A program made the position numbers and the translations under genes. A stretch of 64,000 nucleotides of DNA from Candidatus Kerfeldbacteria bacterium CG15_BIG_FIL_POST_REV_8_21_14_020_45_12 (lineage in GTDB: Bacteria > Patescibacteriota > Patescibacteriia > UBA9570 > XYC2-FULL-38-9): NCBI GenBank assembly GCA_002781785.1, contig PFGC01000050.1, positions 6,304 through 70,303 of the forward strand. The letters are read 5' to 3'. Below, in pieces: positions 8,047 to 59,194 of this stretch (its first letter is position 1; every line of letters begins with the position of its first letter). Under the pieces are notes generated by a model. That model did no database searches, was not told the DNA's origin, and saw nothing but the letters and a program-made list of their open reading frames with translations.

Positions 8047-10434
8047 CTAACCCTTGGTTGAGAATCTTTTCCACTGAGTAAAGTTTGAGCAGCCAGCGTC
8101 GTTACAGGCTTTCAAACGCCATTGGTATAAGTGAGCGGCTTTCAGTTTTTTTACAGTTTTCTTCACTCCAGACAGGCCGCTGAACTTTCTATATTTAGCC
8201 TTCTTTTGAAAGTCCTTCGCCTTAGCACACTGAGCTTTTTCTTCATTCTTACATTTTCTAACCTGGAGTGTGTAGCTATCGGCGCTGCTAATTGCTTTCC
8301 AGGTTAGATTAACTTGTTTATTTTTTCGTTTCTTGACCACCAATTTCTTCTTCTTTGGTTGGTTTGGTTTTTCAATACTACTGCTTCCCAGCCCCTTGTC
8401 TCCGACTAGGGAGTAGGATGAGAAGTGAGCAACGCTAGCTGTGACCACATTTTTTTCGGTATCAACCGAGGTGGATGAAGTACTGGTGTATGAGTTGGTA
8501 TCTTCATCAAAGCTGGCTGCAGCTAAGTCCTCTTCTACCAAGCCCATATCAGCCAGGCGGTCCTCATCGTAGGATATATGGAGTGTTAGGTCCTGGGAAA
8601 ATTCAGTAATTTCATTTCCAGCACTATCTCTAGCCGAGAAGTCCCAGTTTACTCCAGCGTTATAGTCAGAGTCACTACTTGGTAAGCCAGAAGCTGAACC
8701 AACCGTTAAAGTGATTGTGTCCGAGGCCAAAGCTTCTTTTGGAACAATCAACTCTGACTCACCATCTGGAAGTTCAATCGTAGTTGAACCGGCACTGTTG
8801 TCGAATGTATAAGTCGTGTCATCGTACCAGTTACCGGCCTCTGTTAGGTTAACTGTGACAGAGGTTTCTCCGTCTTTATCTCCGGTCACTACCTTGGTGT
8901 CTGAGGCTCTGTAGTAGGTGTTTTCACCAAATCCATCGCAACCGATCCAAGCAGTGGTGTTGGATAGCCAAGCGATTTCACCACTTCCATTTACTAGCTC
9001 ACCCCAATTTTGTCTGCCAGTTTTTGAGTCATACACGAAGCAGAAGGCATAGTCAGCACCGAAGGCTGTGGCTCCTAACGATTCTGCACCAAATGTTGCT
9101 GTGATGTTGATTGTGTGGTCAGCCTTCACTGCTTGCATGTTCAGGCTCTTTGATCCGTCTTTCTTAAGTAGAACCAACTCATTTTCGGGGGGTAAAACGT
9201 CACCGGTCCAAGCTCCAGTTGGATAGGCCGACACCTCATAGGTAATGCCGCTCTTTACATAAAGAGTAGCCACTCCATTTTCATTAGCCGATGCTCCTAC
9301 ATAGCCGCTCCAATCTGCCGCCGAGGCATCCACTGCGCTAACCCAGGAATATGGATCTGGCTTTCCGTCGGTCCCAAGTACAGTTACTTCAATAGTTCCG
9401 TCTGCTTCCTCAAGGGTAAACGGTACAGTTGTTTCCGCGCCAGATGTTGGTGACGCAATCGTCACCATTTCATAATTCTGAATGTATTTGGTGCCACTTC
9501 CAGTGCTGTAGAGTCCGCCGCTTTTGTATTCATATAGGTCACCACTTCCAGAGTCGACGCTGTCATCTGAGCCAACGTCACTGTCTAGGTTGCTTGTGTC
9601 ATCAACCCAAACACCAACCTGGTAAACGTAGTCACCAGACAGGACGTTTAGTTCGGCGGTACCGTTACCACCCTGACTCCAAGCGAAATCATTATAGTAA
9701 TCATTTCCTTCTGGGTCCGTTACTGAGTAGGCGTAAGCCGAGAAAGATTCAACAGATGTGATAGGATCTCCGTTTTCATCAACCAAAGCTATGTTAAGAG
9801 TGGCGTCGTGAGCCAGCAGTGTAATATCCATCTCCTTAGTTTCACTAGAAGATACGGTTGCGCTTGCTGCTACAGCGCCATAGCCATCAACCCACGCTTC
9901 ACAGGTGTAGGTGCCAGCGACTACGCTAATATCAACAGTGGACTCCCCTGGGTTAAATGACCCCCAAAAATAATTTGTCCAGTCAGCTGTGTAACAACTA
10001 GCAGAGCCCCAGCTGGTTAGTGGAATGGCTACGCTGGCCCCGTCTCCATCGACGAGGTTCAAACGCAGGGTTGCGTCTGTCCTGTTGACTGACAAAGACA
10101 CAGCGGTTACGCCACTGTCTTCAGTTGTAATTCCTTCACTACTATAAGAGCTGGAAAACCCATCCCCCCAGGTGCTGAGGTACCACTGACCAGAATCATC
10201 CTCAGACAGATCCCACGAAGCTACGCCGTTTGAGTCAGTCTGCTCATAGGCCCAACCACTGGTCGTGCTCATGTCGTCGGACCAGCCAGAAACCCAAATC
10301 CCAACAGCTGGATCATCACTCTGATCAGTGACCGTTACTTGAATAGAGCGAGTAGCCGCTTGGGCGCCGGATGCCACAAAAAACACTCCGAGGAGTGATG
10401 TAGTAAACAGCGCAAGCAATGATTTAATGTTCAT
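8047..10434 (-). CDS. large secreted S/T/D/G-rich surface protein with C-terminal Lys-rich Fn3-like module (paralog 1 of 4)
   Basis: 795 aa; signal peptide MNIKSLLALFTTSLLGVFFVASGAQA; repeated beta-sandwich-like segments; C-terminus KKKKLVVKKRK...SYTLQVRKC...YQWRLKACNDAGCS...W is shared with the ORFs at 42823, 51009 and 58115. Confidence 0.6.
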   Translation of the reverse strand: MNIKSLLALFTTSLLGVFFVASGAQAATRSIQVTVTDQSDDPAVGIWVSGWSDDMSTTSGWAYEQTDSNGVASWDLSEDDSGQWYLSTWGDGFSSSYSSEGITTEDSGVTAVSLSVNRTDATLRLNLVDGDGASVAIPLTSWGSASCYTADWTNYFWGSFNPGESTVDISVVAGTYTCEAWVDGYGAVAASATVSSSETKEMDITLLAHDATLNIALVDENGDPITSVESFSAYAYSVTDPEGNDYYNDFAWSQGGNGTAELNVLSGDYVYQVGVWVDDTSNLDSDVGSDDSVDSGSGDLYEYKSGGLYSTGSGTKYIQNYEMVTIASPTSGAETTVPFTLEEADGTIEVTVLGTDGKPDPYSWVSAVDASAADWSGYVGASANENGVATLYVKSGITYEVSAYPTGAWTGDVLPPENELVLLKKDGSKSLNMQAVKADHTINITATFGAESLGATAFGADYAFCFVYDSKTGRQNWGELVNGSGEIAWLSNTTAWIGCDGFGENTYYRASDTKVVTGDKDGETSVTVNLTEAGNWYDDTTYTFDNSAGSTTIELPDGESELIVPKEALASDTITLTVGSASGLPSSDSDYNAGVNWDFSARDSAGNEITEFSQDLTLHISYDEDRLADMGLVEEDLAAASFDEDTNSYTSTSSTSVDTEKNVVTASVAHFSSYSLVGDKGLGSSSIEKPNQPKKKKLVVKKRKNKQVNLTWKAISSADSYTLQVRKCKNEEKAQCAKAKDFQKKAKYRKFSGLSGVKKTVKKLKAAHLYQWRLKACNDAGCSNFTQWKRFSTKG

Positions 10435-10540
10435 ACGCTTCTCATTTTGTTGTTTTATTATTTTCTCGTGCCACTATATAAAAATAGCACATTTAACTTG
10501 ATCATTATAACACAATAGTGAAACTTGATCAAGTCACTTA

Positions 10541-11357: not shown

Positions 11358-11786
11358 TTAGTCTACCTTTTCCTCTGCTACAACTTGAGAGACCGTAGCG
11401 GCCGGCTTTGTGCCAGAGACACAGCGCCCCTGTACCATTGCTCCAGTTTCGATCGAGATAATATCCGTTTCAATATCACCAATAATTCTTGCTGTGCTAG
11501 TCAGTTCAATGATGTGAGTTGCAACAATGTTACCTTTCACTTCGCCGGCAATGTGCATATTCTCGGCACTGACATCAGCTTCAATAGAAGCGTCCTTTCC
11601 AACAGTTAAATTTTTTGTAGTTCTGATTGTTCCGGTCACGTGACCTTCAATCAAAATATTATCTTCACTTTCAAACACACCCTCCACTTTTACAGTAGGA
11701 CCAATCACGGTTTGGGCTGTAGTCTCTCCAGCGCTTACCATGCCATGTTCCGTGCCGTCCTCCTCTTTAGAAAACATCGCTACCAT
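11358..11786 (-). CDS. bactofilin (polymer-forming cytoskeletal protein)
   Basis: 142 aa; typical bactofilin beta-helical repeat pattern (IEGHVTGTIRTTKNLTVGKDASIEADVSAENMHIAGEVKGNI). Confidence 0.8.
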   Translation of the reverse strand: MVAMFSKEEDGTEHGMVSAGETTAQTVIGPTVKVEGVFESEDNILIEGHVTGTIRTTKNLTVGKDASIEADVSAENMHIAGEVKGNIVATHIIELTSTARIIGDIETDIISIETGAMVQGRCVSGTKPAATVSQVVAEEKVD

Positions 11787-25945: not shown

Positions 25946-27127
25946 ATGAAAAGAACTGTACTCTGGGTATTGAGTACAATCGTTTTCTCTCTCTTCAGTG
26001 CTGGGGCAGCTTCGGCTGCTACTATGCCAGCTGCGCCTACCCTCATTGCTCCAATGGAGCAAAGTGTGGTGACAACATCTCTCCCTGTCATCACCGGGTT
26101 GGTACATGCTGATTTGCGAGTCGCTGTCTACATTGATGATGTCTTCAATGGATATGCCACCATGGTCTCCGAGGCCAATGGCGTCCAGAGCTTCGCCTAT
26201 GAACCATTTCTAGGTCTAGGAATTGGTGAACATTCGGTGATGGTTCGAGCAGAAGACACTAACGCAGGAACTAGAAGTGATAAGAGTGATGTCCGCATGT
26301 TTCATGTGGTTCATGCACTACCTGCGCCTACGGTAATCGGTGCTGTTGTCAACGACGACTCAAGCGCTAGCCAACCTTTTATGGTTGGTGTTGCGCCAGC
26401 TGATTCTACCGTAACAGTCATGATTGATGGCCAAGAGGTGGGGACAACCACCGCTACTAGTCACGTCTCTGGAATCGGTGACTTTGCTTTCCGAGCGCCA
26501 AGCAACTTGCGCGCCGGTTGGCACAATGTCACCGCTATTGCCTCTGAGCCTTCCGGCTTTGGACGCACCAGTCGCGTGTCTCAGAAAACTGCCATTTTAA
26601 TCTCTGCTCCTGCTGTTACAGCAGAAGCTTCAACATCAAATTCCAACAACGACGAGCCATCAGGCTCTGCTGGTCAAGCTGACCAAGAGACTCAAGAAAC
26701 GATTGCACCAGAAGAATCATCCTCAAATAATGAGGTAGGAGATGTTACCACTGATGACACGCTATCAAGCGATGTATCAGCTGGTGATGCCGTCGCAGAG
26801 GTAAGCGAAGTTGAAACTGACTCCAAAGACGAAGAAGATGAATCAACTGAAGCTGGCACAGATGATCAGGACAACAAACTGACCTTTCTGGGCTGGATAG
26901 CTCTGCTGATTGTTGCTATCACGGTAGTTGCGCGTGCGCGAAAACGCCGGAGTGGCGATATGTCAGAAGTAACTTTCTCACCATCAAGTGATACTAAAGG
27001 TTCGGTTGATGGTTCGGGTAAGCCGCAGGGTCAACTAGACCTCCAAGCTCCCATTGAGAATAAAAACATCACGGTTATTAAGCACGACTCTGATTCAACT
27101 GACCACAAGGAAAACGGGCAATCGTAA
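25946..27127 (+). CDS. membrane-anchored surface protein with Ig-like repeats and acidic disordered linker
   Basis: 393 aa; signal peptide, two Ig-like segments, D/E/S-rich linker, a C-terminal TM helix (LTFLGWIALLIVAITVVA) and a basic stop-transfer. Confidence 0.5.
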   Translation: MKRTVLWVLSTIVFSLFSAGAASAATMPAAPTLIAPMEQSVVTTSLPVITGLVHADLRVAVYIDDVFNGYATMVSEANGVQSFAYEPFLGLGIGEHSVMVRAEDTNAGTRSDKSDVRMFHVVHALPAPTVIGAVVNDDSSASQPFMVGVAPADSTVTVMIDGQEVGTTTATSHVSGIGDFAFRAPSNLRAGWHNVTAIASEPSGFGRTSRVSQKTAILISAPAVTAEASTSNSNNDEPSGSAGQADQETQETIAPEESSSNNEVGDVTTDDTLSSDVSAGDAVAEVSEVETDSKDEEDESTEAGTDDQDNKLTFLGWIALLIVAITVVARARKRRSGDMSEVTFSPSSDTKGSVDGSGKPQGQLDLQAPIENKNITVIKHDSDSTDHKENGQS

Positions 27128-37583: not shown

Positions 37584-38162
37584 ATGAGCGATACTATTTT
37601 GACATTATTAATAGACCATCAGTTTCCGGCTATTTTTCTAGGCGCCGTTTTTCTTGGTGAAACGATCATCCTGTCTGCCGCCTATCTGGCTGGTCAGGGA
37701 ATGTGGTCAATCACCACAGTGTTTTGGTTAGCAATGCTAGGTACGGTTTTGTCAGACGTGGCCTGGTTTTTATTTGGGCAGTCAATTTTTTCAGCCACCA
37801 AGCGTTGGCGTGAAAAACAATTATCTTCAGAACGACTTTTAAAAAAACTGGAAAGCATCACCGGTAGCCGACCATTTTTAGCTCTGCTCTTTATTAAATT
37901 CCTTTACGGTACGCGCATCCTCACCATAGTTTATTTGTCAGCTAGAAAAATTAGGCCTTGGAAATTTATATTTTTTGATACGCTCGGTACTATTATATGG
38001 TTAGTCGTTATGTTGACGGTTGGCTGGTTGGCGGGGCGTGGTGTCTCGAACATAATTTCCGTCGTTGATAAAACTGAGTATGCGCTACTGGTCCTGGTTG
38101 TTATCATTATTTTGTATAGAGTCATCACTGTATGGACAGAAAAGAGACTCATCAAAAAATAA
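37584..38162 (+). CDS. DedA/TVP38-family membrane protein
   Basis: 192 aa; typical DedA re-entrant helix region. Confidence 0.8.
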   Translation: MSDTILTLLIDHQFPAIFLGAVFLGETIILSAAYLAGQGMWSITTVFWLAMLGTVLSDVAWFLFGQSIFSATKRWREKQLSSERLLKKLESITGSRPFLALLFIKFLYGTRILTIVYLSARKIRPWKFIFFDTLGTIIWLVVMLTVGWLAGRGVSNIISVVDKTEYALLVLVVIIILYRVITVWTEKRLIKK

Positions 38163-39121
38163 CAGCAGTAGTGCCCACCTATAACGAGGCTAGTCGGATA
38201 GCTGCTGTTTTACAAACTCTGTGTACGAGTCCAGATATAGCAGAGGTTATTGTGGTAGATGATGGCTCCACTGACAACACTGCAGAAGTTGTAGGCGCTT
38301 TTGATGTTCGTTATATACCAAGTCATTCCAATCAAGGTAAGGGAGCCGCAATGGAAATTGGCGTGCAGGCATCTTGTAACGCAGTAATCTTTTTCGCTGA
38401 CGCTGATGTGACCGGCTTAACGCACGACATGATTCATACTATTACGAATCCTGTTGTTAGAGGTGATGTTGATATGTTCATTGGTATGCGCAACCGAAAG
38501 ATTTACTATCTTCAAAAAATAATTATCTTTGTTCCGCTAGCTGGAGGTGAACGAGCTGTCACTAGGCGACTTTGGAATACTCTCCCAAACTATTATAAGC
38601 ACAGATTTCGTGTTGAGGTTGGTCTAAACTTTTTTGCACAATACTATGGTAATGGATTTCGGTTCACTATCATCAAAGGACTTAAGCAGGTAGTAAAAGA
38701 GAAGAAATACGGCTTGCTCAACGGATTGCTTCAGCGCTTCAAAATGGTGTTAAATATAATAACTGCTCAAATCAAGCTTCAGTTTGTTCATGTTCCAAAA
38801 TCAGCCAAGAACCGCCGTTTGCTAGCTCTAGTTTCTGTCCAGAGTCTCGTTGGCCTCGGTATTGGGATCATGTTAGTGATGGCTGCCTATTACGGTCCGG
38901 CTGACTTTATTTCCCTGATATTTTCTGAAGAGCTACAGGAGGATCCAGGTGCATTGTTCCCTAAATTACTGCTCCGCATTTCCAGGGCAACGGCTTGGGG
39001 CACACTCTTGTCCATTGGGGCATTTATCGCGATGGCTAACCTTATATCTTTTTTGTTGACTGCCAAAAATCTCTTAATGGTTTTTCGAGGGATCAAGAGC
39101 AAGATAGATTTGCAAGAGTAA
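38132..39121 (+). CDS. family-2 glycosyltransferase with C-terminal TM segments
   Basis: 329 aa; VVPTYNEASRI...VVDDGSTDNT GT-A motif. Confidence 0.8.
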   Translation: MDRKETHQKITAVVPTYNEASRIAAVLQTLCTSPDIAEVIVVDDGSTDNTAEVVGAFDVRYIPSHSNQGKGAAMEIGVQASCNAVIFFADADVTGLTHDMIHTITNPVVRGDVDMFIGMRNRKIYYLQKIIIFVPLAGGERAVTRRLWNTLPNYYKHRFRVEVGLNFFAQYYGNGFRFTIIKGLKQVVKEKKYGLLNGLLQRFKMVLNIITAQIKLQFVHVPKSAKNRRLLALVSVQSLVGLGIGIMLVMAAYYGPADFISLIFSEELQEDPGALFPKLLLRISRATAWGTLLSIGAFIAMANLISFLLTAKNLLMVFRGIKSKIDLQE

Positions 39122-39186: not shown

Positions 39187-40812
39187 ATGCAAAACGTAGA
39201 CGCCTACATTCAAAAAATTCACTCCAGCCTACATGGCAGCGGGCCAGTTAATGTGTCACTATTTGTTAACGATCACATGCTCCTGCAGCCGGTGCTTCAT
39301 TCCAAGCTCTCAACAAAAGAGGTAGACATCGCCGCGCTGACATACTCCCTTCTAAGATTGCCTTTTCAGGTTCTTCAAAGCAAACACCTTTTTCTTGGGC
39401 AGTCAGATAGGGTCATGGAAAAAGCTGGCATTGATCTTAACTCAAAGGACTGGGACCACGTGGAGGCTCTAGCCAGAGCTCGCAAGTGTAGATATAAAGC
39501 CAGCAAGAAACACCTAGCTCTGTTCATCGCCAGCAATACCGATGTCGAGGACATTGTGACAAACTTAACCGCTATCTACATTGAGCTTGTAAAACTGCAT
39601 GCTAAATCAAATAGCGGCACTGCGCTCGAGGACAGTTTTGTTAACCGAGAAGATTTTGACAAGCTACAGGAAATTTTAGGTGACCACTTATCTCAGTTTG
39701 CAGACCTCGTGAAGAAGCCAATAGACTGGAAGGTTCAACTGTTGGCCGGTTCTCAGATGGATTACTCAAGAACTGTTCAGCAGTGGTGGATCAATATCGC
39801 TTCAAGCCGAAAGAAGGTTCCGGTCAACGTGTATGATCAGCCTATTTATTTTGTATCTTCTAACTCACATTCACTAATAAATGTGCTGTCAGGATTTCCT
39901 CTGTACAAAAAAAGTTTTATTGAGAAAATTGCCAAGCAAAGATTGGAGGAGCAGCGGCAGGCATTTGAAGACGAAGGTGTTCCGCCAGAGAACGTCCTCT
40001 ATTATTTATCACGCTTTGCGAATAAAAAAGAACAATATCGTCGTGAGCTAAAGGATTTTGAGAAGAAGTACGGCCTCTATCGGATTGCCCCCTATCACAA
40101 TATTGATATTGAAGGTCAGGTGTTCTCCATCAAGGATTTTATAAAAAATCCACACATGGATCCGCGGCTTAAAATCTCAGCTGCCCAAAAGAAGCAACTG
40201 CTCAAGAGTAACGCGCTAATTGTTAACATAGCTTACCCTTTAGGCATGGCTTCCTATCATATTCTGAAGGAGGTGAGCGAAAACGCTGAAGAGGTCAGAG
40301 GAGTTTATATCACGGGCAAGGCCGCTGCTTTAAACGCCAACATTGGTGATATCACTATTCCCCACTACGTTTACGATCATCACTTTGATAACGAAATTTT
40401 TGTTCACAACGATTTCAACAAAGATACCTTTAAGTCATACATGCAAAAGCAGTCAGTTCTTGATGCTCAAAAGGCGGTAACGGTGCGTGGTACCTATTTG
40501 CAAAACGTTGAGAGTCTACAAGCTGACTTTGCTGCTGGACGGACTATCGTTGAAATGGAGGCCGGCCCCTATCTAGAAAGACTTTATGAAATGATTTACC
40601 CAGAGCGGCATCCTCAAAACTCAACATTTGTGGTAAATCCTGATATCAGACTTGGCATGGCCTACTATGTCAGTGATACTCCATATCGATCAGAGGTAAA
40701 CCTAGGTATAAAACGACTCACCTGGGAGGGTTTAAATGGCACTTATGGTATTAGCCTTGGTATCGTTCAAGACATTCTGAATGTTGAGTGCAGCAGACAC
40801 GGCAAGAAGTAG
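39187..40812 (+). CDS. protein with C-terminal PNP/MTAN-family nucleoside phosphorylase-like domain (AMP nucleosidase-like)
   Basis: 541 aa; ITGKAAALNANIGDITIP...IVEMEAGP matches the NTGSAGG...VEME pattern of the PNP_UDP fold; the N-terminal ~330 aa are unknown. Confidence 0.4.
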   Translation: MQNVDAYIQKIHSSLHGSGPVNVSLFVNDHMLLQPVLHSKLSTKEVDIAALTYSLLRLPFQVLQSKHLFLGQSDRVMEKAGIDLNSKDWDHVEALARARKCRYKASKKHLALFIASNTDVEDIVTNLTAIYIELVKLHAKSNSGTALEDSFVNREDFDKLQEILGDHLSQFADLVKKPIDWKVQLLAGSQMDYSRTVQQWWINIASSRKKVPVNVYDQPIYFVSSNSHSLINVLSGFPLYKKSFIEKIAKQRLEEQRQAFEDEGVPPENVLYYLSRFANKKEQYRRELKDFEKKYGLYRIAPYHNIDIEGQVFSIKDFIKNPHMDPRLKISAAQKKQLLKSNALIVNIAYPLGMASYHILKEVSENAEEVRGVYITGKAAALNANIGDITIPHYVYDHHFDNEIFVHNDFNKDTFKSYMQKQSVLDAQKAVTVRGTYLQNVESLQADFAAGRTIVEMEAGPYLERLYEMIYPERHPQNSTFVVNPDIRLGMAYYVSDTPYRSEVNLGIKRLTWEGLNGTYGISLGIVQDILNVECSRHGKK

Positions 40813-41515: not shown

Positions 41516-42052
41516 TTGAGTATGTTCTGGATTTTAGTATTCGGAATTATTATTAGTTTTTTTGCGTGCTGGACAATCGGTGCCAACGATGCGGCTAACG
41601 CCATGGGAACCTCTGTTGGTTCAAAGGCACTAACCTTTAAACGCGCCGTCATTATTGGTGGTATCTTCGAGTTTTTGGGAGCTGTATTGGTGGGCGCCAA
41701 AGTAACAGGCACCATTAGTAATGGGATTATTGATCCAGCTGTGCTTGCCACTAACGCAGGGTACGCCATGCTAGCCATGCTGGCGGCGCTCTTAACTACG
41801 GGACTATTTTTACTTCTAGCTAGTAAGTGGGGAATTCCAGTTTCTACCACTCACGCTATCGTGGGCTCTATGGCTGGCGTTGGTATTGCTTTGGGTGGGC
41901 TCAGCGTTGTGCACTGGAATGTTTTAGGAAAAATTGCGGCTAGTTGGGTAGTATCACCTGTGGTTGGAGGGCTCATCGCCTTTCTGATAATGCGATTAAT
42001 TAAATCGCAAATCATTTATCGAGAAGACGCTGACTACCGCATGTATCTCTAA
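41516..42052 (+). CDS. PiT-family phosphate transporter half-protein (repeat unit A)
   Basis: 178 aa with GANDAANAMG and STTHAIVGSMAGVG signatures. It is one repeat unit of the PHO4/PiT fold. Confidence 0.7.
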   Translation: MSMFWILVFGIIISFFACWTIGANDAANAMGTSVGSKALTFKRAVIIGGIFEFLGAVLVGAKVTGTISNGIIDPAVLATNAGYAMLAMLAALLTTGLFLLLASKWGIPVSTTHAIVGSMAGVGIALGGLSVVHWNVLGKIAASWVVSPVVGGLIAFLIMRLIKSQIIYREDADYRMYL

Positions 42053-42738
42053 CCAAGTAATGCTCTCAAAAAATAGAAGATAACGCCGGCACACATGGCC
42101 ACGAAAGGAATCTGTAAAATCCAGATTGCGAAGGTTTTTCTAAGAAGTTTTTTGTCGAGTACAGCTTTTTCTTTTCTAGCTAGTCCTACTCCGATAATTG
42201 AACCAACAATAGTGTGAGTGGTTGAGATCGGCATACCTAGCTGTGATGCAAATAGAACCGTGGTAGCAGCCGCAAATTCTGCAGCAAAGCCTCGCATTGG
42301 TGTAATTTCTGTAATACCTTTACCTAGAGTTTTCATAACATTACGGCCATACATGGCAAGTCCCAGAAAAATTCCAGAGCCACCCAAGACTAGGACCCAA
42401 AAGGGTACACCCACACTAGCAGCCAAAGATCCATTTTTGTATATATTTGCCATAGCTGCCAAGGGACCAATGCCGTTAGCCACGTCATTGGCTCCGTGCG
42501 CGAAGGCCACATAGGCTGCCGTCAGTATTTGCAAGTAGCCAAAGGTTCTCAACACATTCAAACCTGGCTTCCCCTCCTTGGCTTTGTCTTTTCTCTTGAA
42601 ACTAAGTCCGGCATATACTGCAACTCCTACTAACAGGGCTAAAATAGCTGCCACAATTGAAGCCTCACCAAACGAGAAATCTAGCTTGAGGTTTTTTAGT
42701 CCCTTGAAGACAATAGATAAAAAGAGGACAAAAACCAC
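42049..42738 (-). CDS. PiT-family phosphate transporter half-protein (repeat unit B)
   Basis: 229 aa with GANDVANGIG and STTHTIVGSIIGVG signatures. It is convergent with the other half and overlaps it by 4 bp. Confidence 0.7.
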   Translation of the reverse strand: MVFVLFLSIVFKGLKNLKLDFSFGEASIVAAILALLVGVAVYAGLSFKRKDKAKEGKPGLNVLRTFGYLQILTAAYVAFAHGANDVANGIGPLAAMANIYKNGSLAASVGVPFWVLVLGGSGIFLGLAMYGRNVMKTLGKGITEITPMRGFAAEFAAATTVLFASQLGMPISTTHTIVGSIIGVGLARKEKAVLDKKLLRKTFAIWILQIPFVAMCAGVIFYFLRALLG

Positions 42739-42785
42739 AAGTGAGACCAGATACGGGGTTTAGGTAGCTGCTAATGGCCAAATAA

Positions 42786-42815
42786 AAAATGACCCTCACT
42801 TGAGGGTCATTTTTG
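42786..42815. terminator. terminator hairpin (aaaatgaccctc-actt-gagggtcattttt)
   Basis: Perfect inverted repeat with a T-run, immediately 3' of the surface-protein gene at 42823. Confidence 0.55.
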
Positions 42816-42822: not shown

Positions 42823-43983
42823 TTATTTCAGTTTCTTTGTGGCCGCTTTGCTGCACCCAAAGGCGTTACAGGATAGGACTGTAGCTTTTAGGCCAGATTT
42901 CTTCAATTTCTTTTTATCTTTTTTAGTAAAAGATAATTTGGTTTTAGCAACGTTGCTGTAGGTGATAATCTTTTTACCCTTTTTGTTCTTCACAAAAACT
43001 TTGTAGTAAGATGCGCCACTAACGGTGTTCCAGGACACCAGCTTCTTGCTAGCCTTTTTTACTTTAGACTTAGTTGGTTCAAGCTGATTGCTATCCACCG
43101 AGCAAGTATCTCCTTCAGAGCCGCCAACACAATCAGTTAAATCAGAATCGTCAGCGCCTACAGCAGAAGATTTAACTACCTCACCCTTTTCTGTAGTGAA
43201 GGTTAGCACAACCGGAGTCCCCCATAATCGGTGGTCAACTAGATCATAAATCTTCTTGGTAGAAGCTGTCGCAATTAGAACGAAGTTACCGTTGTAAAAC
43301 TTATTTCTAAAGTCATAGTATTCCCAAGAATCACCGGACGAAGCGTACTTCGTTGTCGAAGTAGATGTCTCCATAGTATCTCCGCTTACCTCAAAGAAGG
43401 ATAGATCAATCTTGACACTGCTGTCGTCTGCCTCTGGGTTTGTCCAGGATACCGTGCCGTCAGTGGCAATAGATAGTCCAGTTACTGGAGCAACGCTGGT
43501 GGCGTAGTATTCATTGTCGGTTACGCTTGGGTATGCTTCGTCAGAGCTAGTTGTAAAAATACCATCAACGCGAAACTGATATTCTGTAGCTGGGGTCAAT
43601 CCAGTAAAGGTGTATTGTAGCTCACCGCTACCGTCGTCATTCAAGACAAGTTGAACTTCTTCGCTTCCAACTGAAGTTTGAATGTCCTCCGTCATGTTTA
43701 CCGTAACGCCTTCAAAGTTAGAGTAGCCCATTGGTAACTTAACTGTGCAATTTGAATCATCAAACGACGGTACGAATTGCATAGTAATTGTAGTCGGTGT
43801 AGCCGCTACTGGTTCAGCGTAGATTTCTAGAGTTGAGCCAGTAGTTTCTGTGTAGGCCTCGTGGGCGCTACAGTCACTAATTGTATTTTCGTAGCCATAG
43901 GTTGCCTGAGCTGCTGAGGCACTGATCATAAATAGACCCGTGGCCACAACGGAGCTTAGAAATAGCGCTCGATGTGATTTCAT
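42823..43983 (-). CDS. secreted surface protein with C-terminal Lys-rich Fn3-like module (paralog 2 of 4)
   Basis: 386 aa; signal peptide; C-terminus KSKVKKASKKLVSWNTVSGASYYKVFVKNKKG...LSCNAFGCSKAATKK. Confidence 0.55.
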   Translation of the reverse strand: MKSHRALFLSSVVATGLFMISASAAQATYGYENTISDCSAHEAYTETTGSTLEIYAEPVAATPTTITMQFVPSFDDSNCTVKLPMGYSNFEGVTVNMTEDIQTSVGSEEVQLVLNDDGSGELQYTFTGLTPATEYQFRVDGIFTTSSDEAYPSVTDNEYYATSVAPVTGLSIATDGTVSWTNPEADDSSVKIDLSFFEVSGDTMETSTSTTKYASSGDSWEYYDFRNKFYNGNFVLIATASTKKIYDLVDHRLWGTPVVLTFTTEKGEVVKSSAVGADDSDLTDCVGGSEGDTCSVDSNQLEPTKSKVKKASKKLVSWNTVSGASYYKVFVKNKKGKKIITYSNVAKTKLSFTKKDKKKLKKSGLKATVLSCNAFGCSKAATKKLK

Positions 43984-47627: not shown

Positions 47628-47885
47628 TATTCAAATTGTTTTTTGATTTCTATTTTCTCGATTTCGTTTATGTATTGTATCATTTTTTCCACTTTTAGTC
47701 AACACAAGGGGTTGACATTTTAGTAATAGAATGGTACTTCTAGCCGGCAAGAAGAGGTGCATTTCGGTGCAGATTCTTCTCGTTCTCATACATTTTAGAT
47801 CTCACCTCTATCGTCTTCAGGCTCTGCTTGAAGGCTCCTTCCCCACCAGCGGCAATTATCCGCTCCCACCACCACGGAGGCCGAC

Positions 47886-49685
47886 ATGGCCACTTCTAGC
47901 ATTGCCCCGACGGGCTCCCTCCAGGTCGTCGACCAGGTGTGGCGGGATGTCGAGGCCCACCGCAACCTCAGCCTGCTTGTCGGCGGCTGTGTGAAGCTTG
48001 GCGTCAACCCCAGTTCGGTCTTGGCGGCCATTGCGCCAGCCATCAACGGACTGGCGGCCAAGCTTCCGGCTGCCGCAGACCTGGCCAAGATGACGCCGCA
48101 GGGTGTCGCTTCGGCCCTCGGGTCCCTGCGGGGTACCTGGGTCACCCTCGACGAGTACAACCGCGCTGCGCTGGCGGTTGTGAAGGCCACGGGACACCCG
48201 TGGCACCTCCGAGAGATCGGAGGTTGCTCCCGGTTCATGGGCTTCGGTGCAGACGCGCTGAAGCTGATGATCAACAACCTCATCGGGAAGTACTTCAGCA
48301 GCCCCTGGCACGTTCTTGGTCAGCTCCCCCGCGGTTCCCACCTCTTCAACAACAACAAGGGGTGGGACAGTGAGTTGGTTGGCCGGGGACATGCCCGACT
48401 GTACTGTCGGTACATGCCGGGTGAATACGGCCAGCCGCCGCGCGAGCCCTCGGAGGACTTCCTCTCGCTGTACCACCTGATCCGGGGCATGAACGAGGCG
48501 CTGCCGATGCTCTGGCCGGGCAACAGCCAGGGTGGGCGGGTTCACTACCCGCTCGTGCAGCTGCCCCTCATGGAGCTGCTCGAGCAGTGGGCCCCCCAGC
48601 TGCAGGCGCGTATCGACGGAGGAGGTCTCTGGATCACCAATGCCGGTGAGGATCGTCTCATCGGCAAGGTGGTCTGGGCGGTGCCCGACTCCCGGGGAAT
48701 CTACGCTGGTCACACGGCGGACGAGTACCCAGGAGAAGATGGCATCGAGGGAGTGCGCCTGTCTCAGGCGATCACCACTCCCTGCACCTGCTGCTGCGAC
48801 CCTCAGGGCGAGCCCATCCACCACTCGCTGTTCGAGGCCGGCGAGACCTTCATGATCAATCGTGTGCGGGGCACCTTCCCGTCCACGATCGTGGAGGTGC
48901 AGTGGAACCCGACCCTCGGTGACCTCCTCCCTTTGAACAAGGGCACACTGCAGACCAGGCTGATGGAGGAGCATCGAGAGGACCAGGGCGCTCGCGCTCT
49001 GGTCAGCACGGTCAACAAGCTGGCCCTGGCGGAGGCGGTTCTCGGAGGGATGTTCCCCAACGAGGAAACTGCTGCCATCGTGGCAGACCGAGTGCATCGG
49101 CGCGCCACGGGCACGGAGACCAAACTCCTGTGGTCCCAGGCCGACATCGCCATCTACACAGACATCGTCAGCTCCGAGCAGGTGATGACTGGCATGGATG
49201 TTGGTGACTGGACCAAGCGGGTTCAGCGCATGTTCGACCGGATGCGCGAGCTCGCATCCAGGCACGGGGTCTGGCTCTACAAAGAGACCGGTGACGGGGC
49301 AGTATTCATCGCTACGGCCTCCTTCGGGCAGGTCGCGGCGATCAACTGTGCTGAAGTCGGTCTCGGCGGAATGCTGGACCACGCCCTGGCCTTCGCCTCG
49401 GAGCTCCCGGCCATCGTGCGGGAGACGCTCGGGGCTGAGATCAGGGTCGGAATGCATGTCGGTGAGAACTACTGGAGGATCCAGGGAGCGGGCCTGCTCG
49501 AGGCCAGCGGCGTGCCCATCACCCGAGCCGCTAGGCTCGAGGCGGCGGGACAAGCCGGTCGAGTGCTCGTCAGCCCCGAGGTCGTTCAGATGGCTAAAGG
49601 CCTGAGCTGGGAGTTCCAGCCCCGAGAAGACTACACCGTCAAGCACAGCAAGGTCATCACGGGTCACCTCCTGGTCGTCAGCTAG
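47886..49685 (+). CDS. class III nucleotidyl (adenylate/guanylate) cyclase-domain protein with ~400-aa uncharacterised N-terminal region; high-GC islet
   Basis: 599 aa. The C-terminal ~190 aa carry the cyclase homology domain pattern (IAIYTDIVSSEQVM..., KETGDGAVFIA, EIRVGMHVGE, GVPITRAARLEAAGQAGRVLVS). GC is conspicuously high compared with flanking genes. I preferred it over the fully overlapping antisense track ORF 47856..49697. Confidence 0.7.
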   Translation: MATSSIAPTGSLQVVDQVWRDVEAHRNLSLLVGGCVKLGVNPSSVLAAIAPAINGLAAKLPAAADLAKMTPQGVASALGSLRGTWVTLDEYNRAALAVVKATGHPWHLREIGGCSRFMGFGADALKLMINNLIGKYFSSPWHVLGQLPRGSHLFNNNKGWDSELVGRGHARLYCRYMPGEYGQPPREPSEDFLSLYHLIRGMNEALPMLWPGNSQGGRVHYPLVQLPLMELLEQWAPQLQARIDGGGLWITNAGEDRLIGKVVWAVPDSRGIYAGHTADEYPGEDGIEGVRLSQAITTPCTCCCDPQGEPIHHSLFEAGETFMINRVRGTFPSTIVEVQWNPTLGDLLPLNKGTLQTRLMEEHREDQGARALVSTVNKLALAEAVLGGMFPNEETAAIVADRVHRRATGTETKLLWSQADIAIYTDIVSSEQVMTGMDVGDWTKRVQRMFDRMRELASRHGVWLYKETGDGAVFIATASFGQVAAINCAEVGLGGMLDHALAFASELPAIVRETLGAEIRVGMHVGENYWRIQGAGLLEASGVPITRAARLEAAGQAGRVLVSPEVVQMAKGLSWEFQPREDYTVKHSKVITGHLLVVS

Positions 49686-49772
49686 ACCTGACCACAACCC
49701 GGAGAGTCTGATCGCGCAAGCGGACAGATTCGAAGGGTTCTTTTTTTACCCACATGTCACTAGTTTCTATAT

Positions 49773-50321: not shown

Positions 50322-50951
50322 CTACAGAAAAGCAAAGCTCTGTTTAGGAGATCCGTCTAGAATTTCAATTGTTGTAATAGGAGCTCCGAAACTAGGAGGA
50401 TTCAAAGTATGGTCTTGCCAAATATCAATTACAAAGCAACTCTTGTGGGAGGCTAACCTATCTTCAACCACAAAGACTTTGTCACCAAACTGATCCGGCA
50501 TCCGCAGGCGCGTGCCAAATGGCAGGCAGTTAGCAGCCACCGTTCCGTCGTGAACTCTGCTGCCGGAGGCGGTGGTAAATGGATCTCCATCTGTTTGCCA
50601 AGGCACAGAATTATAAACTGTAATTTGAGACTTATATGACCTTAGGACGCGATCTGGAAACGGCTGAATAATTGGTAGTCTGGCGATTGGTTCAGATTGA
50701 TCCCAAGGTGTAGCTGGACCTAGTACATAGGCACTGCGCTCCGAGAGAGTAGAATGAGGTGCAAATATATTATAGGCTATTGTCACAATTAACAGCACGA
50801 GCAAAGGCCAGGAAATTCTAAGGTTTTCTCCATTTTTTCTGCCAAAAGTGACAATATTTTGTATAAATGTGTTCATAGGAATTGGGTTCAAAAAAGCCTC
50901 ACCTATGTGGTGAAGCGGCCGGACCTTAGCAAAAAAATCAATTTTTGTCAA
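50322..50951 (-). CDS. 3D-domain (MltA-like) cell-wall-associated protein
   Basis: 209 aa; TM/signal segment; C-terminal VYNSVPWQTDGDPFTTASGSRVHDGTVAAN...GDKVFVVEDR resembles the 3D domain of YocH/MltA-like proteins. Confidence 0.5.
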   Translation of the reverse strand: MTKIDFFAKVRPLHHIGEAFLNPIPMNTFIQNIVTFGRKNGENLRISWPLLVLLIVTIAYNIFAPHSTLSERSAYVLGPATPWDQSEPIARLPIIQPFPDRVLRSYKSQITVYNSVPWQTDGDPFTTASGSRVHDGTVAANCLPFGTRLRMPDQFGDKVFVVEDRLASHKSCFVIDIWQDHTLNPPSFGAPITTIEILDGSPKQSFAFL

Positions 50952-50969
50952 TGCCTAGCGCAAATCAAA

Positions 50970-50998
50970 AAAGCACCGCCAGGCGGCGGTGCTTTTTG
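50970..50998. terminator. terminator hairpin (aaaaagcaccgcc-aggc-ggcggtgcttttt)
   Basis: Perfect inverted repeat plus a T-run 3' of the surface-protein gene at 51009. Confidence 0.55.
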
Positions 50999-51008: not shown

Positions 51009-52229
51009 CTATTTAACTGACTTTGGAGCTGTCTGAAATCTATTCCAGTCAGTATATTCTCCACAACCAGTTTCATTGCAAGCCCTCACCCTCCACTGGT
51101 AGTAGAAATCTGGCTTTAATTTTTTAACAACCTTGGATGTTGTTGTTAAGTCATTAAATTTCTTCCAATTTTTTTTCTTAGCAAAATCATTTTTCTTTAC
51201 GCATTTTTTACCACTATCGTTTTTACATTTTCTAACCTGTAGATCGTAGCTGGTGGCAGTGTCAACTTCTTGCCAACTCAGTGTAGCGGTTTTAGACTTA
51301 ATCTTTTTCTCCTTCAGCTTTTTCTCCTTCACCTTACTTGGTTTCTCTTGCGCGCTGTTTATTGTTACCACGACTCGGTCAGAACTATCTCCAGTTTCAG
51401 ACTGGGTAACAACCTGGTACCCAAAGTTTCCATCACACTTGTCGGTTAGATTGCACCAGTTGCCTAGGGCTTGGCGAATTTCTAAAGAGGCCTGAGGCAC
51501 ATCTGGACCACTGCCGGAACCATCCATATTTGTTTCGGAATCTTCGGAGTCAACCGACCCAATCAAGGTATCTTCTTCCTCTTGGAATCCAGCAGTATCA
51601 CCACTTTCCTCATAAATTTCTAAGAAACTTCTATCTTCTGAGGCAGAGCTTATAGAGTCCCCGAATTCAGCCATGCTGGCAACCTGCTCAGAAGTAAGCG
51701 TGATATTGGCTACCAGGTAGTTTGTATAGACTTCCTCGCCAGATGGTCCGAAGGCGAACACCATGTTGTGATCAAAGTCCTTGGGTAGTGAGGTAATAGT
51801 TCCGGCTAGCGCCAAGTCATAGATAGATTCGAATGCATCTTCTGTTACATTGTAGACTCCTTGCATTGGCCAAGCCGTGGTGAAGCCAACGTACATATCG
51901 GTTGCACTGGTGCCAAAATAGAGCTCAAGTAGGTCTACCTGTGACTCGTCATGGTAGAGGTAAGTAGCACAGTTATCATCACTGGCAACTTCTACCCAAC
52001 TAGACTCATCCCAACAATAAGGAGTGGAGACCAAGGGCTCCTCGCCAGACTCGTCAATAATCTGAGCTTCTTCTGGCCAGTCGCTAAAATCACCATCAAA
52101 GGTAATTGAGTCAGTTTCGATGGTAGATTCAATTGCTCTGGCGTTTGCCGCCGAGATGGTCAGCATAAGCCCGCCGGCTGTTATTAGTGCCGCTAAGGCA
52201 ACGGCAATTTTTCCTGTGGTTAGAAACAT
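51009..52229 (-). CDS. secreted acidic surface protein with C-terminal Lys-rich Fn3-like module (paralog 3 of 4)
   Basis: 406 aa; signal peptide; C-terminus ...TATLSWQEVDTATSYDLQVRKCKND...YQWRVRACNETGCGEYTDW, nearly collinear with the 8047 paralog. Confidence 0.55.
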   Translation of the reverse strand: MFLTTGKIAVALAALITAGGLMLTISAANARAIESTIETDSITFDGDFSDWPEEAQIIDESGEEPLVSTPYCWDESSWVEVASDDNCATYLYHDESQVDLLELYFGTSATDMYVGFTTAWPMQGVYNVTEDAFESIYDLALAGTITSLPKDFDHNMVFAFGPSGEEVYTNYLVANITLTSEQVASMAEFGDSISSASEDRSFLEIYEESGDTAGFQEEEDTLIGSVDSEDSETNMDGSGSGPDVPQASLEIRQALGNWCNLTDKCDGNFGYQVVTQSETGDSSDRVVVTINSAQEKPSKVKEKKLKEKKIKSKTATLSWQEVDTATSYDLQVRKCKNDSGKKCVKKNDFAKKKNWKKFNDLTTTSKVVKKLKPDFYYQWRVRACNETGCGEYTDWNRFQTAPKSVK

Positions 52230-55917: not shown

Positions 55918-56089
55918 ACGCGGATTATATCACGAAAATGATGATAAATTTCTGAGCCAGCGCAAATTATTATCGGTCAGGCCCACACTTGATAAGAAAT
56001 AGGAGATAGCCAATCCCGGATATTCCATCTCCCATAGATTATTTCTATAAAAAGCAAAACGACCGCAATTAAGCGGCCGTTTTTGTTTG

Positions 56090-56161
56090 AGCGGGTGAGG
56101 GGAATCGAACCCCTATCAACAGGTTGGAAACCTGTGGTAATAGCCATTATACGACACCCGC
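56090..56161 (-). tRNA. tRNA-Gly (anticodon TCC)
   Basis: Acceptor GCGGGTG/CACCCGC, anticodon stem ACAGG/CCTGT with loop TTTCCAA, T arm AGGGG-TTCGATT-CCCCT; a hairpin plus T-run follows on the minus strand. Confidence 0.85.
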
Positions 56162-56256
56162 ACGCTCAAAGGAGTATACAGCAAGATTTAATATTGGCAA
56201 GTTTTATTGGTAAAAATGCTGGACAAACTGCCCTTCACAAGCTACTCTTGCCGCAT

Positions 56257-57030
56257 ATGCAGCCAGCGCAAGATACTTGCCATTGTATCGAGGTTAAAAA
56301 CCTTATGGTGCAATTTGGTGACACTCCAGTATTAGAAAATATCTCCTTTAGAATTGAAGAAGGTGACTACGTTGGCATTATCGGTGCTAATGGCAGTGGC
56401 AAGACAACCCTGCTGCGAGCGATTCTAGGTTTGCAAGAACCTACCAGTGGAGAAGTTTTGATAATGGGTAAATCTCCCCATCAGTCCGGAGAGCTCAAGC
56501 AGATTGGTTATGTTCCCCAAAAAGCCTCACGCGCTGGTTGGGATTTTCCTGCAACAGTTGCAGAGGTGGTATTAAGCGGACGGACTCCCCGAGCTGGTTT
56601 CTTTCACAGGCTTACTAAACAAGATCGTGAGGCTGCTGAGAGCGCTATGCAGCAAGCGGAGATCTTTGAGCTAAGAAATCATCTGGTGGGTGAGCTATCA
56701 GGAGGACAGCGGCAACGTGTGTTTATCGCCCGAGCTCTGGCGGCGGGGCCGTGTACATTAATTTTAGATGAGCCAACGGCCAATGTTGATGAGGCTAGCG
56801 AGCACGCTTTCTATGACTTTTTAAGAAAGTTAAATGCCGACGGTATTACCATCATTCTGGTTACCCACGACATAGACGTGGCTACTCAAGAGGCCAGTAC
56901 AATTATTTGTATAAATCGTGAGCTAGTCTGTCATTTGCCGGCCAGTGAGTTTATTGCCAAGCATCACTTAGAAGCTATCTATGGCAAACAGGCTAAGCAC
57001 ATCATGCATCGCCATCAACACAACGACTAA
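56257..57030 (+). CDS. ABC transporter ATP-binding protein (metal-type, ZnuC/MntB-like)
   Basis: Walker A GANGSGKTTLL, signature LSGGQRQR, Walker B ILDEP. I chose the start at MQPAQD, because the upstream part of the track ORF overlaps tRNA-Gly. Confidence 0.85.
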   Translation: MQPAQDTCHCIEVKNLMVQFGDTPVLENISFRIEEGDYVGIIGANGSGKTTLLRAILGLQEPTSGEVLIMGKSPHQSGELKQIGYVPQKASRAGWDFPATVAEVVLSGRTPRAGFFHRLTKQDREAAESAMQQAEIFELRNHLVGELSGGQRQRVFIARALAAGPCTLILDEPTANVDEASEHAFYDFLRKLNADGITIILVTHDIDVATQEASTIICINRELVCHLPASEFIAKHHLEAIYGKQAKHIMHRHQHND

Positions 57031-57032
57031 AT

Positions 57033-58069: not shown

Positions 58070-58114
58070 AATTTTTTTGTTTATTGATTAAGATGCTAAT
58101 AATATGACCCTGAC

Positions 58115-59194
58115 TTATTTAGTTGTTAACTTTCTATATTTACTCCAATCTGATTTTTCACCTGTTACGTAAATTGCTCGCACTCTAACTTTATATTTCT
58201 TGGCTGATTTCAGGAATTTCTTCTTCAGCTGTTTTTTCTTGACTGTGATTCCAGTAAAGACGTGCTTCTTCTTATTACCTTTCCAAAGCTGGAGTGTGTA
58301 TCTGTCGATGTAGGTGTTGCCTGTCCATTTTACCAGGGCTCGTCTTTTTTTAATTTTCTTAACAATTGGCTGAGCTTGTCTTGTGTTAGACAACTTCCTT
58401 TTTGTGGTGGCTGTCACGGTATCCTGTGCTAGCACACAATTATCACTGCTTAGAGCTCGTACTTGAAAGAAATATTCTGTCTTAGCACTTAATCCAGAAA
58501 CAATACTGGAAGCGTCGTCAGTCATGTCTTCAGTCTCTGCTGTGTCGTTATCAATTGCTGTCTGACTTGTAGCGTAGGCTAGCGAGTAGCTACCAACTGC
58601 GCTGTCTGTGTATGTGCCTCTTTCCATATCTACGTTCGTTCCGAAGACAGTGGCGTCAACTCCGTTAAGTTCAGCGGTTTCAATAGCGGCACAGGGATCT
58701 TCCGCTATTGTGAAAGAATCCGACATGGTGTAGTCATCGTCGGTAGCCTCAAAAGCAGATGACATGCCAATTGCGTAATCGCCTTCCGTTAAAGTATTAG
58801 TTACACCAGTTAACGTAATGGTGTAACTTCCAGAAGTTAGGTCATCAGTAAGTAGCAGGCTGTAGGCATTGTCATTATCAACACTGTCTCCAGTTGCACT
58901 AACATCATCAGACGAAAGAGTTGCTACACTAAAGTCAAAAGTAGTGTCGTCGCTTGAACCGACAATTCCATCAGTCACTTCGTACATTTTTATGTTAACA
59001 CCACCGCCAGTGAAAATGCCAAAAGCAATCGGAAATGAGATAACGTATGTAGCTTCATTGCCAGTAGCTCTACTGGAGACGCTGTCAATTGTTACCGAAG
59101 TAATGTTGGAATCAGAGGCAAAGGCTGTTGTTGGTAGTAGACTTACTAGAGCCAAGCCAAGTCCTGTGATAAATATCCCCACTGTTTTTTTCAT
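58115..59194 (-). CDS. secreted surface protein with C-terminal Lys-rich Fn3-like module (paralog 4 of 4)
   Basis: 359 aa; signal peptide; C-terminus KRRALVKWTGNTYIDRYTLQLWKGNKKKHVF...YKVRVRAIYVTGEKSDWSKY. Confidence 0.55.
   Translation of the reverse strand: MKKTVGIFITGLGLALVSLLPTTAFASDSNITSVTIDSVSSRATGNEATYVISFPIAFGIFTGGGVNIKMYEVTDGIVGSSDDTTFDFSVATLSSDDVSATGDSVDNDNAYSLLLTDDLTSGSYTITLTGVTNTLTEGDYAIGMSSAFEATDDDYTMSDSFTIAEDPCAAIETAELNGVDATVFGTNVDMERGTYTDSAVGSYSLAYATSQTAIDNDTAETEDMTDDASSIVSGLSAKTEYFFQVRALSSDNCVLAQDTVTATTKRKLSNTRQAQPIVKKIKKRRALVKWTGNTYIDRYTLQLWKGNKKKHVFTGITVKKKQLKKKFLKSAKKYKVRVRAIYVTGEKSDWSKYRKLTTK

Follow-up and report, generated by a model that had tools for sequence, protein, structure and literature searches.

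Lysine-rich C-terminal Fn3 domains on four predicted secreted proteins of a Candidatus Kerfeldbacteria bacterium

Four genes for secreted proteins with acidic bodies and basic tails

We analyzed a stretch of 64,000 nucleotides (the window) of contig PFGC01000050.1, which belongs to a metagenome-assembled genome (MAG) of Candidatus Kerfeldbacteria, an uncultured groundwater bacterium of the Patescibacteria or candidate phyla radiation (CPR). The window carries four dispersed genes, here called A to D, whose predicted products combine a signal peptide, a strongly acidic body and a lysine-rich fibronectin type III (Fn3) domain at the extreme C-terminus (the tail). An earlier reading of the DNA alone (the sequence-only reading) had described these genes as a family sharing an invariant module, a strong candidate for a lineage-specific surface-retention domain. 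The feature holds up, with clear statistics, but in a narrower form than was first described, namely a common domain in an uncommon electrostatic state at the usual site of an anchor.

All four minus-strand open reading frames (ORFs) lie where they had been placed. Gene A (8047–10434; PIW36501.1, locus tag COW24_04800) encodes a 795 aa acidic protein of multiple β-sandwiches that ends in a Lys-rich Fn3 tail; its Pfam matches are weak (CarboxypepD_reg, Big_1 and fn3). Gene B (42823–43983; PIW36536.1, COW24_04990; 386 aa) has an acidic Fn3-like ectodomain, with Pfam fn3 and Pur_ac_phosph_N matches within residues 55–141, before its Lys-rich Fn3 tail. The acidic ectodomain of the gene C protein (51009–52229; PIW36544.1, COW24_05040; 406 aa) has no recognized fold and is likewise followed by a Lys-rich Fn3 tail, and gene D (58115–59194; PIW36551.1, COW24_05080; 359 aa) encodes an N-terminal β-sandwich, an acidic Fn3 domain and then the Lys-rich Fn3 tail. 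All four are hypothetical proteins in NCBI, and in UniProt A, C and D carry the name "Fibronectin type-III domain-containing protein". For gene B, NCBI starts translation 18 codons later than we and the JGI and ENA calls do; the resulting product, PIW36536.1, is 368 aa long and therefore lacks the signal peptide.

Signal peptides and their cleavage were judged by eye from the n-h-c pattern and hydropathy. In each of the four N-termini a basic n-region is followed by a hydrophobic h-region and an AXA end, in agreement with the signal peptide claimed for each protein. The predicted peptides (a slash marks the putative cleavage site) comprise residues 1–26 of A (10357–10434, GAQA/ATRS; N-terminal hydrophobicity 2.33 and no later transmembrane segment), 1–27 of B (43903–43983, AAQA/TYG), 1–30 of C (52140–52229, AANA/RAIE) and 1–26 of D (59117–59194, TAFA/SDS; the AXA/[AS]D site is kept in the orthologues described below). 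The ectodomains, which are unrelated to one another, contain 37–47% Ser+Thr+Asp+Gly, as the S/T/D/G-richness noted earlier implies, have a pI of ∼4.05 and a net charge of –29 to –83, and are only 1–3% Lys. The last 105 aa of the same proteins have a pI of 9.8–11.0, 23–25% Lys and a net charge of +16 to +29. Ectodomain and tail charges are –83/+26, –29/+20, –47/+16 and –33/+29 for A, B, C and D, respectively, and Lys far exceeds Arg in the tails (24–26 Lys vs 0–8 Arg).

The polycationic modules themselves run to the C-termini. That of A (8050–8382, residues 685–795) has four Cys, a pI of 10.4 and a net charge of +26; that of B (42826–43095, residues 297–386) is Fn3-like with an SCNAFGCS staple and a short G strand, and the last 90 aa of this protein are 29% Lys; that of C (51012–51359, residues 291–406) has four Cys; and that of D (58118–58396, residues 267–359) has no Cys, a pI of 11.1, a net charge of +29 and 26% Lys.

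No LPXTG or other known anchor had been reported, and motif, hydropathy, Pfam and NCBIfam scans agree. The lipobox [LVI][ASTVI][GAS]C is absent from the first 40 residues of all four proteins, no second hydrophobic segment follows the signal peptide in any of them (maximum 15-aa hydropathy 0.95–1.61), and none has an LPXTG motif near the C-terminus with a hydrophobic tail as a sortase substrate would. Scans of Pfam and NCBIfam (both at E ≤ 1) gave no SLH, CWB2, LysM, GW/SH3b, choline-binding, PG_binding or WxL match and no match to the C-terminal sorting domain of the type IX secretion system (T9SS; Por_Secre_tail/TIGR04183), a system that to our knowledge is not expected in Patescibacteria. 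SLAP (PF03217) also gave no match at E ≤ 1, and all that the tails share with SLAP/TAB is the property of being a basic C-terminal module. On this sequence evidence we place the tails in none of the SLAP, SLH, CWB2, LysM, GW, choline-binding or T9SS C-terminal domain (CTD) families.

How alike the four tails are

The A and C tails are 49.5% identical over 109 aa (E 2e-32; Smith–Waterman z = 35 against shuffles) and have 18 of 27 Lys in common as well as all four Cys, which bears out the shared Cys pairs reported for these two proteins; by sequence they are clear paralogues. BLASTP E values for pairs that involve the B or D tail range from 1e-5 to 3 (B–C 1e-5, A–D 8e-4, A–B 0.04, B–D not significant), and the B–D pair, with z = 2.7, is near compositional similarity. 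Because the B and D tails are only distantly related to A and C and to each other, a "same invariant module" of ∼100 aa on all four proteins is overstated: the sameness holds for A and C and fails for B and D, and the word invariant has to be dropped. By these comparisons A and C form a close pair, and the B and D tails, though also Lys-rich Fn3 domains, belong to other subtypes. Similarity of composition and nothing more is excluded for A and C by the values above, and is nearly true of B and D.

We also rejected the idea that the modules are a mobile or newly duplicated DNA cassette, or repeats of the diversity-generating retroelement type, since the DNA matches between modules are short and weak (no longer than 92 nt, 67–83% identity). 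A hidden Markov model (HMM) of the four tails, run against a six-frame translation of the window, found only these four.

The tails are Fn3 domains of a widespread subfamily

The tail is a true Fn3 domain. Against Pfam fn3 (PF00041, gathering score 25 bits) the D tail scores 40.1 bits, above the threshold, and the C tail (23.8 bits, residues 308–393) and A tail (17.5 bits) fall below it; the gene B tail has no Pfam fn3 match, the fn3 match of that protein lying instead at residues 113–141. An AlphaFold2 (AF2) model of the A tail (mean confidence, pLDDT, 75.7) is a predicted seven-stranded β-sandwich that superimposes on solved Fn3 domains, and all of its top Foldseek matches in the PDB are Fn3 domains, so that the Fn3-type C-terminus proposed earlier is upheld by the predicted structure. 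When the tails were aligned with six generic repeats the Fn3 core signature was present (Trp in strand B, Tyr in strand C, Leu between E and F, and Y.x.V.A in strand F), and the B tail, too, aligns in register with generic Fn3 repeats. The A and C tails differ from generic repeats by an insertion of ∼13 aa between strands C′ and E.

Searching 1.84 billion representative proteins with a profile built from the four tails gave 7913 matches, led by giant proteins with 6–34 Fn3 repeats. Among the best 150 of these, which were the ones examined, generic Fn3 proteins are matched at E values down to 1e-176, and the giants bear the signature LSW, SGA.SY.LQVS, YYWRV.A.N..G.S.WS..F.T. The L.W, SY.LQV and Y.WRV.A.N..G.S motifs that had been taken as marks of the module are thus present but generic to a large bacterial Fn3 subfamily; even the ACN..GCS staple is included, as a repeat of one matched protein (P0132) has the Cys-stapled loop ACNTSGCS. 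The "poly-Lys linker" said to precede the module aligns with the N-terminal (A-strand) region of ordinary Fn3 repeats, where these have P..P, and is therefore part of the domain and no separate linker. The profile matches and the Foldseek result likewise dispose of a lineage-specific domain, and of a novel lineage-specific fold, in favor of an ordinary Fn3 of a widespread subfamily.

Comparison with the generic PF00041 repeats of the "W..SGA.SY.LQVS...YYWRV.A.N..G.S.WS..F.T" type (P0040, P0132 and P0155) is informative in this regard. The fold is the same, and both have the P..P start, LSW, SY.LQV, Y.WRV.A and the N..G.S of the FG loop; the generic repeats, however, form long tandem arrays and are near neutral, whereas the tails are single copies at the extreme C-terminus with 16–26% Lys.

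A lysine-supercharged surface on an ordinary core

Of all 90-aa stretches in the window's 58 main ORFs, those in the four tails rank first to fourth in Lys content. Lys-richness is not a proteome-wide trait: Lys makes up 5.8% of the window proteome and far less of the ectodomains that these four genes encode. Among 883 Fn3 repeats taken from the 138 best profile matches in the 1.84 billion proteins, Lys content has a median of 1.3% and a maximum of 12%, and net charge has a median of 0 and a maximum of +6; the tails studied here, those of the gene D orthologues included, have 16–26% Lys and a net charge of +14 to +30. Two very Lys-rich stretches did occur among the best 150 of the 7913 matches, but they are charged, Glu/Lys-rich low-complexity segments of giant multi-domain proteins and are not Fn3.

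The distribution of the charge within the domain is uneven. At the 14 core columns that are hydrophobic in generic repeats, the tails are hydrophobic at 10–13 of 13–14 positions and basic at none or one, and at the other ∼80 columns 28–43% of tail residues are Lys or Arg, vs 1–5% basic residues in the generic repeats, more than half of whose non-core positions are Ser, Thr, Asn or Gly. The tails, then, are ordinary Fn3 cores with a Lys-supercharged surface, and the charge is what is unusual about them.

The tails might nevertheless have no special function, being Fn3 spacers whose Lys content arose by compositional drift or a local bias toward A-rich DNA. The modules are indeed A-rich (37–44% A, with 36–41% GC vs 44–49% GC in the rest of each gene), and the B and D tails are alike in little beyond composition. 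We disfavor this explanation and consider it very improbable: the A-richness is accounted for by AAA and AAG codons at non-core positions only, core residues being kept; the ectodomains of the same genes are almost free of Lys; none of the 883 related Fn3 repeats comes near this charge; and the charge is kept across orthologues of 45–47% identity in spite of Lys turnover, as described in the next section.

Orthologues and related loci

The initiation factor IF-2 encoded in the window is 62–64% identical to that of two Kerfeldbacteria-like assemblies and 40–47% identical to those of other Patescibacteria, and the same organism is seen again in several ENA, JGI and Logan assemblies. Gene D has three orthologues at 45–47% identity (P0152, P0153 and P0154, the last named Candidatus Kerfeldbacteria) from three other Kerfeldbacteria-like assemblies. 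In D and these three proteins the ectodomain has a pI of 4.1, a net charge of –21 to –34 and 0–3 Lys in ∼240 aa, and the tail has a pI of 10.3–11.1 and a net charge of +15 to +29 (+15 to +17, with 16–19% Lys, in the orthologues alone). Only 7 of the 24 Lys positions of the D tail are basic in all four proteins. The dipole is thus kept as the Lys positions turn over, a pattern that points to selection on net charge rather than on particular residues.

The closest assembly is L001 (contig CAYFNF010000004.1), with 64% IF-2 identity; its contig is labeled "uncultured Gammaproteobacteria", but by IF-2 identity and synteny it is Kerfeldbacteria-like. Between a diacylglycerol (DAG) kinase-like gene and infB, syntenic to gene A, it encodes a 416-aa protein of the same architecture, with a signal peptide, an acidic body homologous to the N-terminal domain of D (E 2e-7) and a 32% Lys tail that ends ...YAVQLTACEDGVCGEWSKMIKFKTKKKKK. 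This tail was found by a composition screen and went undetected by the four-tail HMM; hhalign places it in register with the four-tail profile at a probability of 49%. The screen (at least 18% Lys in the C-terminal 90 aa), applied to the window and 15 related CPR loci, flagged seven ORFs, five of which are also Lys-poor and acidic elsewhere: the four in the window and the one in L001. A bactofilin gene (PF04519, 1.3e-25; window 11358–11786, minus strand; L001 7241–7729; L002 7893–8267) followed by the DAG-kinase-like gene lies upstream of infB in three of three Kerfeldbacteria-like genomes, and in two of these genomes a Lys-tailed gene separates the DAG-kinase-like gene from infB; the third, Kerfeldbacteria assembly L002, has no Lys-tailed gene at the gene A position and carries an unrelated opposite-strand gene there. 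For gene C no orthologue was detected apart from C itself, and when the four-tail alignment was used in a word-indexed protein search the one match was a fragment of D. The tail module is a low-complexity, fast-diverging one. We also note a ∼2-kb island in L001 (12000–14000) of 60–63% GC in a contig of ∼44% GC, with many overlapping Arg-rich ORFs, which may be an insertion or an assembly chimera.

The orthologues also bear on the possibility that the tail lysines are amine nucleophiles for covalent attachment, whether by an L,D-transpeptidase to peptidoglycan or by a transglutaminase-like cross-linker. In Braun's lipoprotein the C-terminal Lys is attached to peptidoglycan by an L,D-transpeptidase, Lys is strongly favored over Arg in the tails (above), and Lys ends occur in the window (...KKLK, ...KSVK and ...LTTK) and in L001 (...KKKKK). 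The terminal Lys is not conserved, however, since A ends KG and orthologues end KE and Q; no YkuD or transglutaminase gene was identified adjoining any of the four genes; and one or two Lys suffice for cross-linking, which leaves 25% Lys unexplained. We regard covalent attachment as very unlikely.

Self-assembly is a further alternative, in which the basic tail would dock head-to-tail on the acidic ectodomain of another member of the set, or on another exoprotein, and so build a coat or fiber. Each member is a strong electrostatic dipole, and other exoproteins of the window are very acidic too. Against this, the negative charge of the ectodomains does not scale with the positive charge of the tails (the four charge pairs are given above) and no repeat or lattice-type domain is present. 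We think such assembly improbable.

Comparison with known surface modules

Small terminal β-rich domains that occur on many unrelated secreted proteins and set their destination are familiar from the T9SS CTD and from the GW/SH3b modules of Listeria InlB. The latter are basic and have lipoteichoic acid as a ligand, but they are SH3-like and tandem, and T9SS belongs to diderm Bacteroidota; neither kind has an HMM match in the tails in Pfam or NCBIfam.

Closer in their electrostatics is the TAB/SLAP module (PF03217) of Lactobacillus SlpA, a positively charged C-terminal domain that binds (lipo)teichoic acid (PMC11181022). Like the tails it is C-terminal and highly positive; its hold on the anionic wall polymer is non-covalent, and with this module turned inward the remainder of SlpA is displayed (PMC11181022). 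Its fold and sequence are unrelated, however, with two tandem motifs that contain phosphate sites (YxY...KxxN), and its ligand binding has been demonstrated, whereas that of the tails is a proposal. Streptococcus sanguinis ScpH resembles our proteins in having a cationic C-terminal region in place of LPXTG on a secreted multi-domain (Fn/Ig) protein, a region that binds a polyanion by charge complementarity (bioRxiv 10.64898/2026.05.25.726231); the differences are that its ligand is extracellular DNA (eDNA), that the region consists of FIVAR3 plus an unfolded DNA-binding tail rather than Fn3, and that the organism is a Firmicute. That an Fn3 domain can bind polyanions is shown by the "cationic cradle" of the animal heparin-binding domain fibronectin III-13 (cited in PMC3182887). 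That domain is eukaryotic, lies inside a tandem array and has six discontinuous basic residues that make one patch on an ordinary domain, whereas the tails have basic residues at about a third of all non-core positions.

ScpH makes binding of the tails to eDNA or other nucleic acid worth considering, either for decoration of an eDNA matrix or for capture by a nucleotide-scavenging symbiont. Its electropositive C-terminus both replaces LPXTG and binds eDNA (bioRxiv 10.64898/2026.05.25.726231), and the tails studied here are Lys-dominated and diffusely cationic. Yet Pfam finds no nuclease, ComEA-like or other DNA-handling domain in the ectodomains, no helix-hairpin-helix or other DNA-binding motif is present, and with ThyA and DHFR encoded in the window the organism need not live wholly on scavenged nucleotides. 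We rate nucleic acid binding as a role of low probability.

By analogy with these systems, the tails would be a variation on known non-covalent, charge-based surface anchors. We found no description of Lys-rich Fn3 tails in CPR bacteria in the literature library that was searched.

Proposed charge-based retention at the cell surface

Four facts, namely a shared terminal module, the lack of an anchor, an intact core with a cationic surface and apparent selection on charge, together suggest a generic localization role that operates by multivalent, low-specificity electrostatics rather than enzymatic activity or a dedicated pocket for one ligand. Anchoring modules are common to many proteins of one genome and are swapped between them (bioRxiv 10.1101/2025.04.02.646754), and one type of terminal module on four unrelated ectodomains fits that pattern. 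The explanation that we prefer, to which we give slightly less than an even chance, is that the tails hold these proteins by non-covalent electrostatic attraction to an anionic component of the cell's own envelope. The earlier proposal of a basic surface-retention module survives to this extent: the terminal position, the lack of another anchor and the conserved dipole speak for it, and the arguments from a lineage-specific domain, from invariance and from neighboring genes fall away.

In such a scheme the proteins would be exported by the Sec system and cleaved by signal peptidase, yielding strongly acidic β-sandwiches with one terminal Fn3, in which the hydrophobic core has been kept and about a third of the solvent-exposed positions have turned to Lys. 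This polycationic Fn3 would act as a generic, swappable, non-covalent retention module. As the last part to leave the translocon, the tail could stick by multivalent electrostatics to a polyanion of the envelope, for which a teichoic-acid-like wall polymer, anionic lipid head groups and an acidic protein layer are candidates, and the acidic ectodomain, repelled by the anionic surface, would project outward. Other secreted proteins of the window are also very acidic (pI 4.1–4.4), which makes an anionic surface plausible. Cleavage of the signal peptide, surface location, the nature of the ligand and an adhesin function for any ectodomain are all inferred.

Several observations weigh against this explanation. 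The cleavage sites were, as noted, judged by eye, and the surface location and the envelope polyanion are both deduced from sequence; no teichoic acid genes were identified in the 64-kb window; export of a +26 domain would be opposed by the membrane potential, which is unfavorable; and DNA, host surfaces and minerals would be equally good ligands for a uniformly cationic domain. The extent of the family is a further point: no Lys-tailed example occurs in the 10 kb that flank the window on each side, genome and metagenome contigs scanned with the A/C module and the D alignment gave no confirmed loci, and only one further example turned up in ∼250 kb of related CPR loci.

The same charge evidence would serve equally for binding to a foreign anionic surface, be it the envelope of a host bacterium or an aquifer mineral or biofilm, with the proteins acting as sticky adhesins or as bridges. 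The Patescibacteria in culture live as episymbionts, and few of the factors by which they bind their hosts have been identified (PMC11623550), large Fn3 surface proteins have been proposed as host-interaction candidates in another patescibacterium (PMC13059738), and our organism is drawn from many environmental metagenomes. But if the signal peptide is removed, the protein would have no other hold on its producer, so the cells would not be tethered; stickiness of the poly-Lys kind is non-specific and offers no host specificity; and the variable parts of the proteins are the ectodomains, not the tails. Foreign-surface binding seems to us unlikely.

Retention of proteins and attachment to hosts are poorly understood in Patescibacteria, most of whose secreted proteins are annotated as hypothetical. 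Lys-supercharged Fn3 domains may possibly form an undescribed "charge anchor" class in Kerfeldbacteria-like Patescibacteria, interchangeable between proteins, that sets which acidic proteins are displayed on or glued by the ultra-small cells and perhaps contributes to host contact, although we put the chance of this wider proposal at not much above a third. Were retention by charge confirmed, a simple sequence rule (an acidic body plus a terminal Fn3 with more than ∼15% Lys and a net charge above +14) would predict the displayed proteome of the lineage, the tails would be a minimal case of an ordinary spacer domain turned into an anchor by surface charge alone, and they might serve as a surface-display tag. 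If it were wrong, they would be an unusual compositional variant of a very common domain.

Genomic surroundings and other features of the window

A strong hairpin terminator had been described after each gene, and this is so for three of the four. Terminator-like or terminator hairpins on the minus strand, each with a 13-bp stem and runs of A and T on its flanks, follow gene A (7993–8026; the 91-nt stretch folds at –28.7 kcal/mol, z –3.2), gene B (42785–42814, z –3.6) and gene C (50968–50997, found by a consensus scan, fold z –3.8); no hairpin lies within 100 nt of gene D.

The neighbors that had been singled out give little help. The supposed 3D-domain wall protein next to gene C (ORF 50322–50951) has no Pfam match, even at E = 10 on its C-terminal part. 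A divergent gene for a C39-like peptidase (PF13529, 3.9e-15) does adjoin gene D, which is also next to a zinc/manganese-type ABC transporter. The D orthologues, however, are flanked by nadA and nadC and have no C39 gene close to them. The adjacency is therefore no argument, and a functional link between D and the peptidase is not supported. In two of the related loci (L082 6908–7984 and L083 7010–8068) the D orthologue sits inside the NAD cluster, between nadA and nadC/nadB, an odd site for such a gene.

Exported proteins of the window beyond the four are anchored or built differently. They include a very acidic type-I membrane protein with Ig-like domains (25946–27127), an M23-type peptidase judged from sequence (31673–32161), and an exported protein of pI 4.1 (36361–37455, minus strand) with Asp-rich, calcium-binding-like repeats of the D.D.DG type that ends in a cupredoxin/plastocyanin-like copper-binding domain (PF00127, 2.5e-11).

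Immediately downstream of gene B lies a PiT/PHO4 phosphate transporter in two halves on opposite strands, 41516–42052 (+) and 42049–42738 (–), which converge with a 4-nt overlap. On PF01384 the plus-strand ORF covers positions 1–146 (2e-51) and the minus-strand ORF 162–349 (1.2e-58); this arrangement could be a gene-splitting inversion or a two-gene version of an internally duplicated transporter.

Other overlaps occur elsewhere. Two ORFs of ∼600 aa, 47886–49685 (+) and 47856–49697 (–), overlap almost fully on opposite strands; the plus-strand ORF has an adenylate/guanylate cyclase catalytic domain (PF00211, 5.8e-12), and its antisense partner is probably a shadow ORF. An ABC transporter ATPase ORF (56083–57030, plus strand, 315 aa) begins inside a tRNA-Gly on the opposite strand (56089–56161, minus strand); its product is 241 aa in the calls of other assemblies, so the true start lies downstream of the listed one. 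Finally, a plus-strand gene at 39187–40812 has a full-length match to DUF6909 (PF21850, 2e-135) and adjoins a GT2 glycosyltransferase gene (38132–39121).

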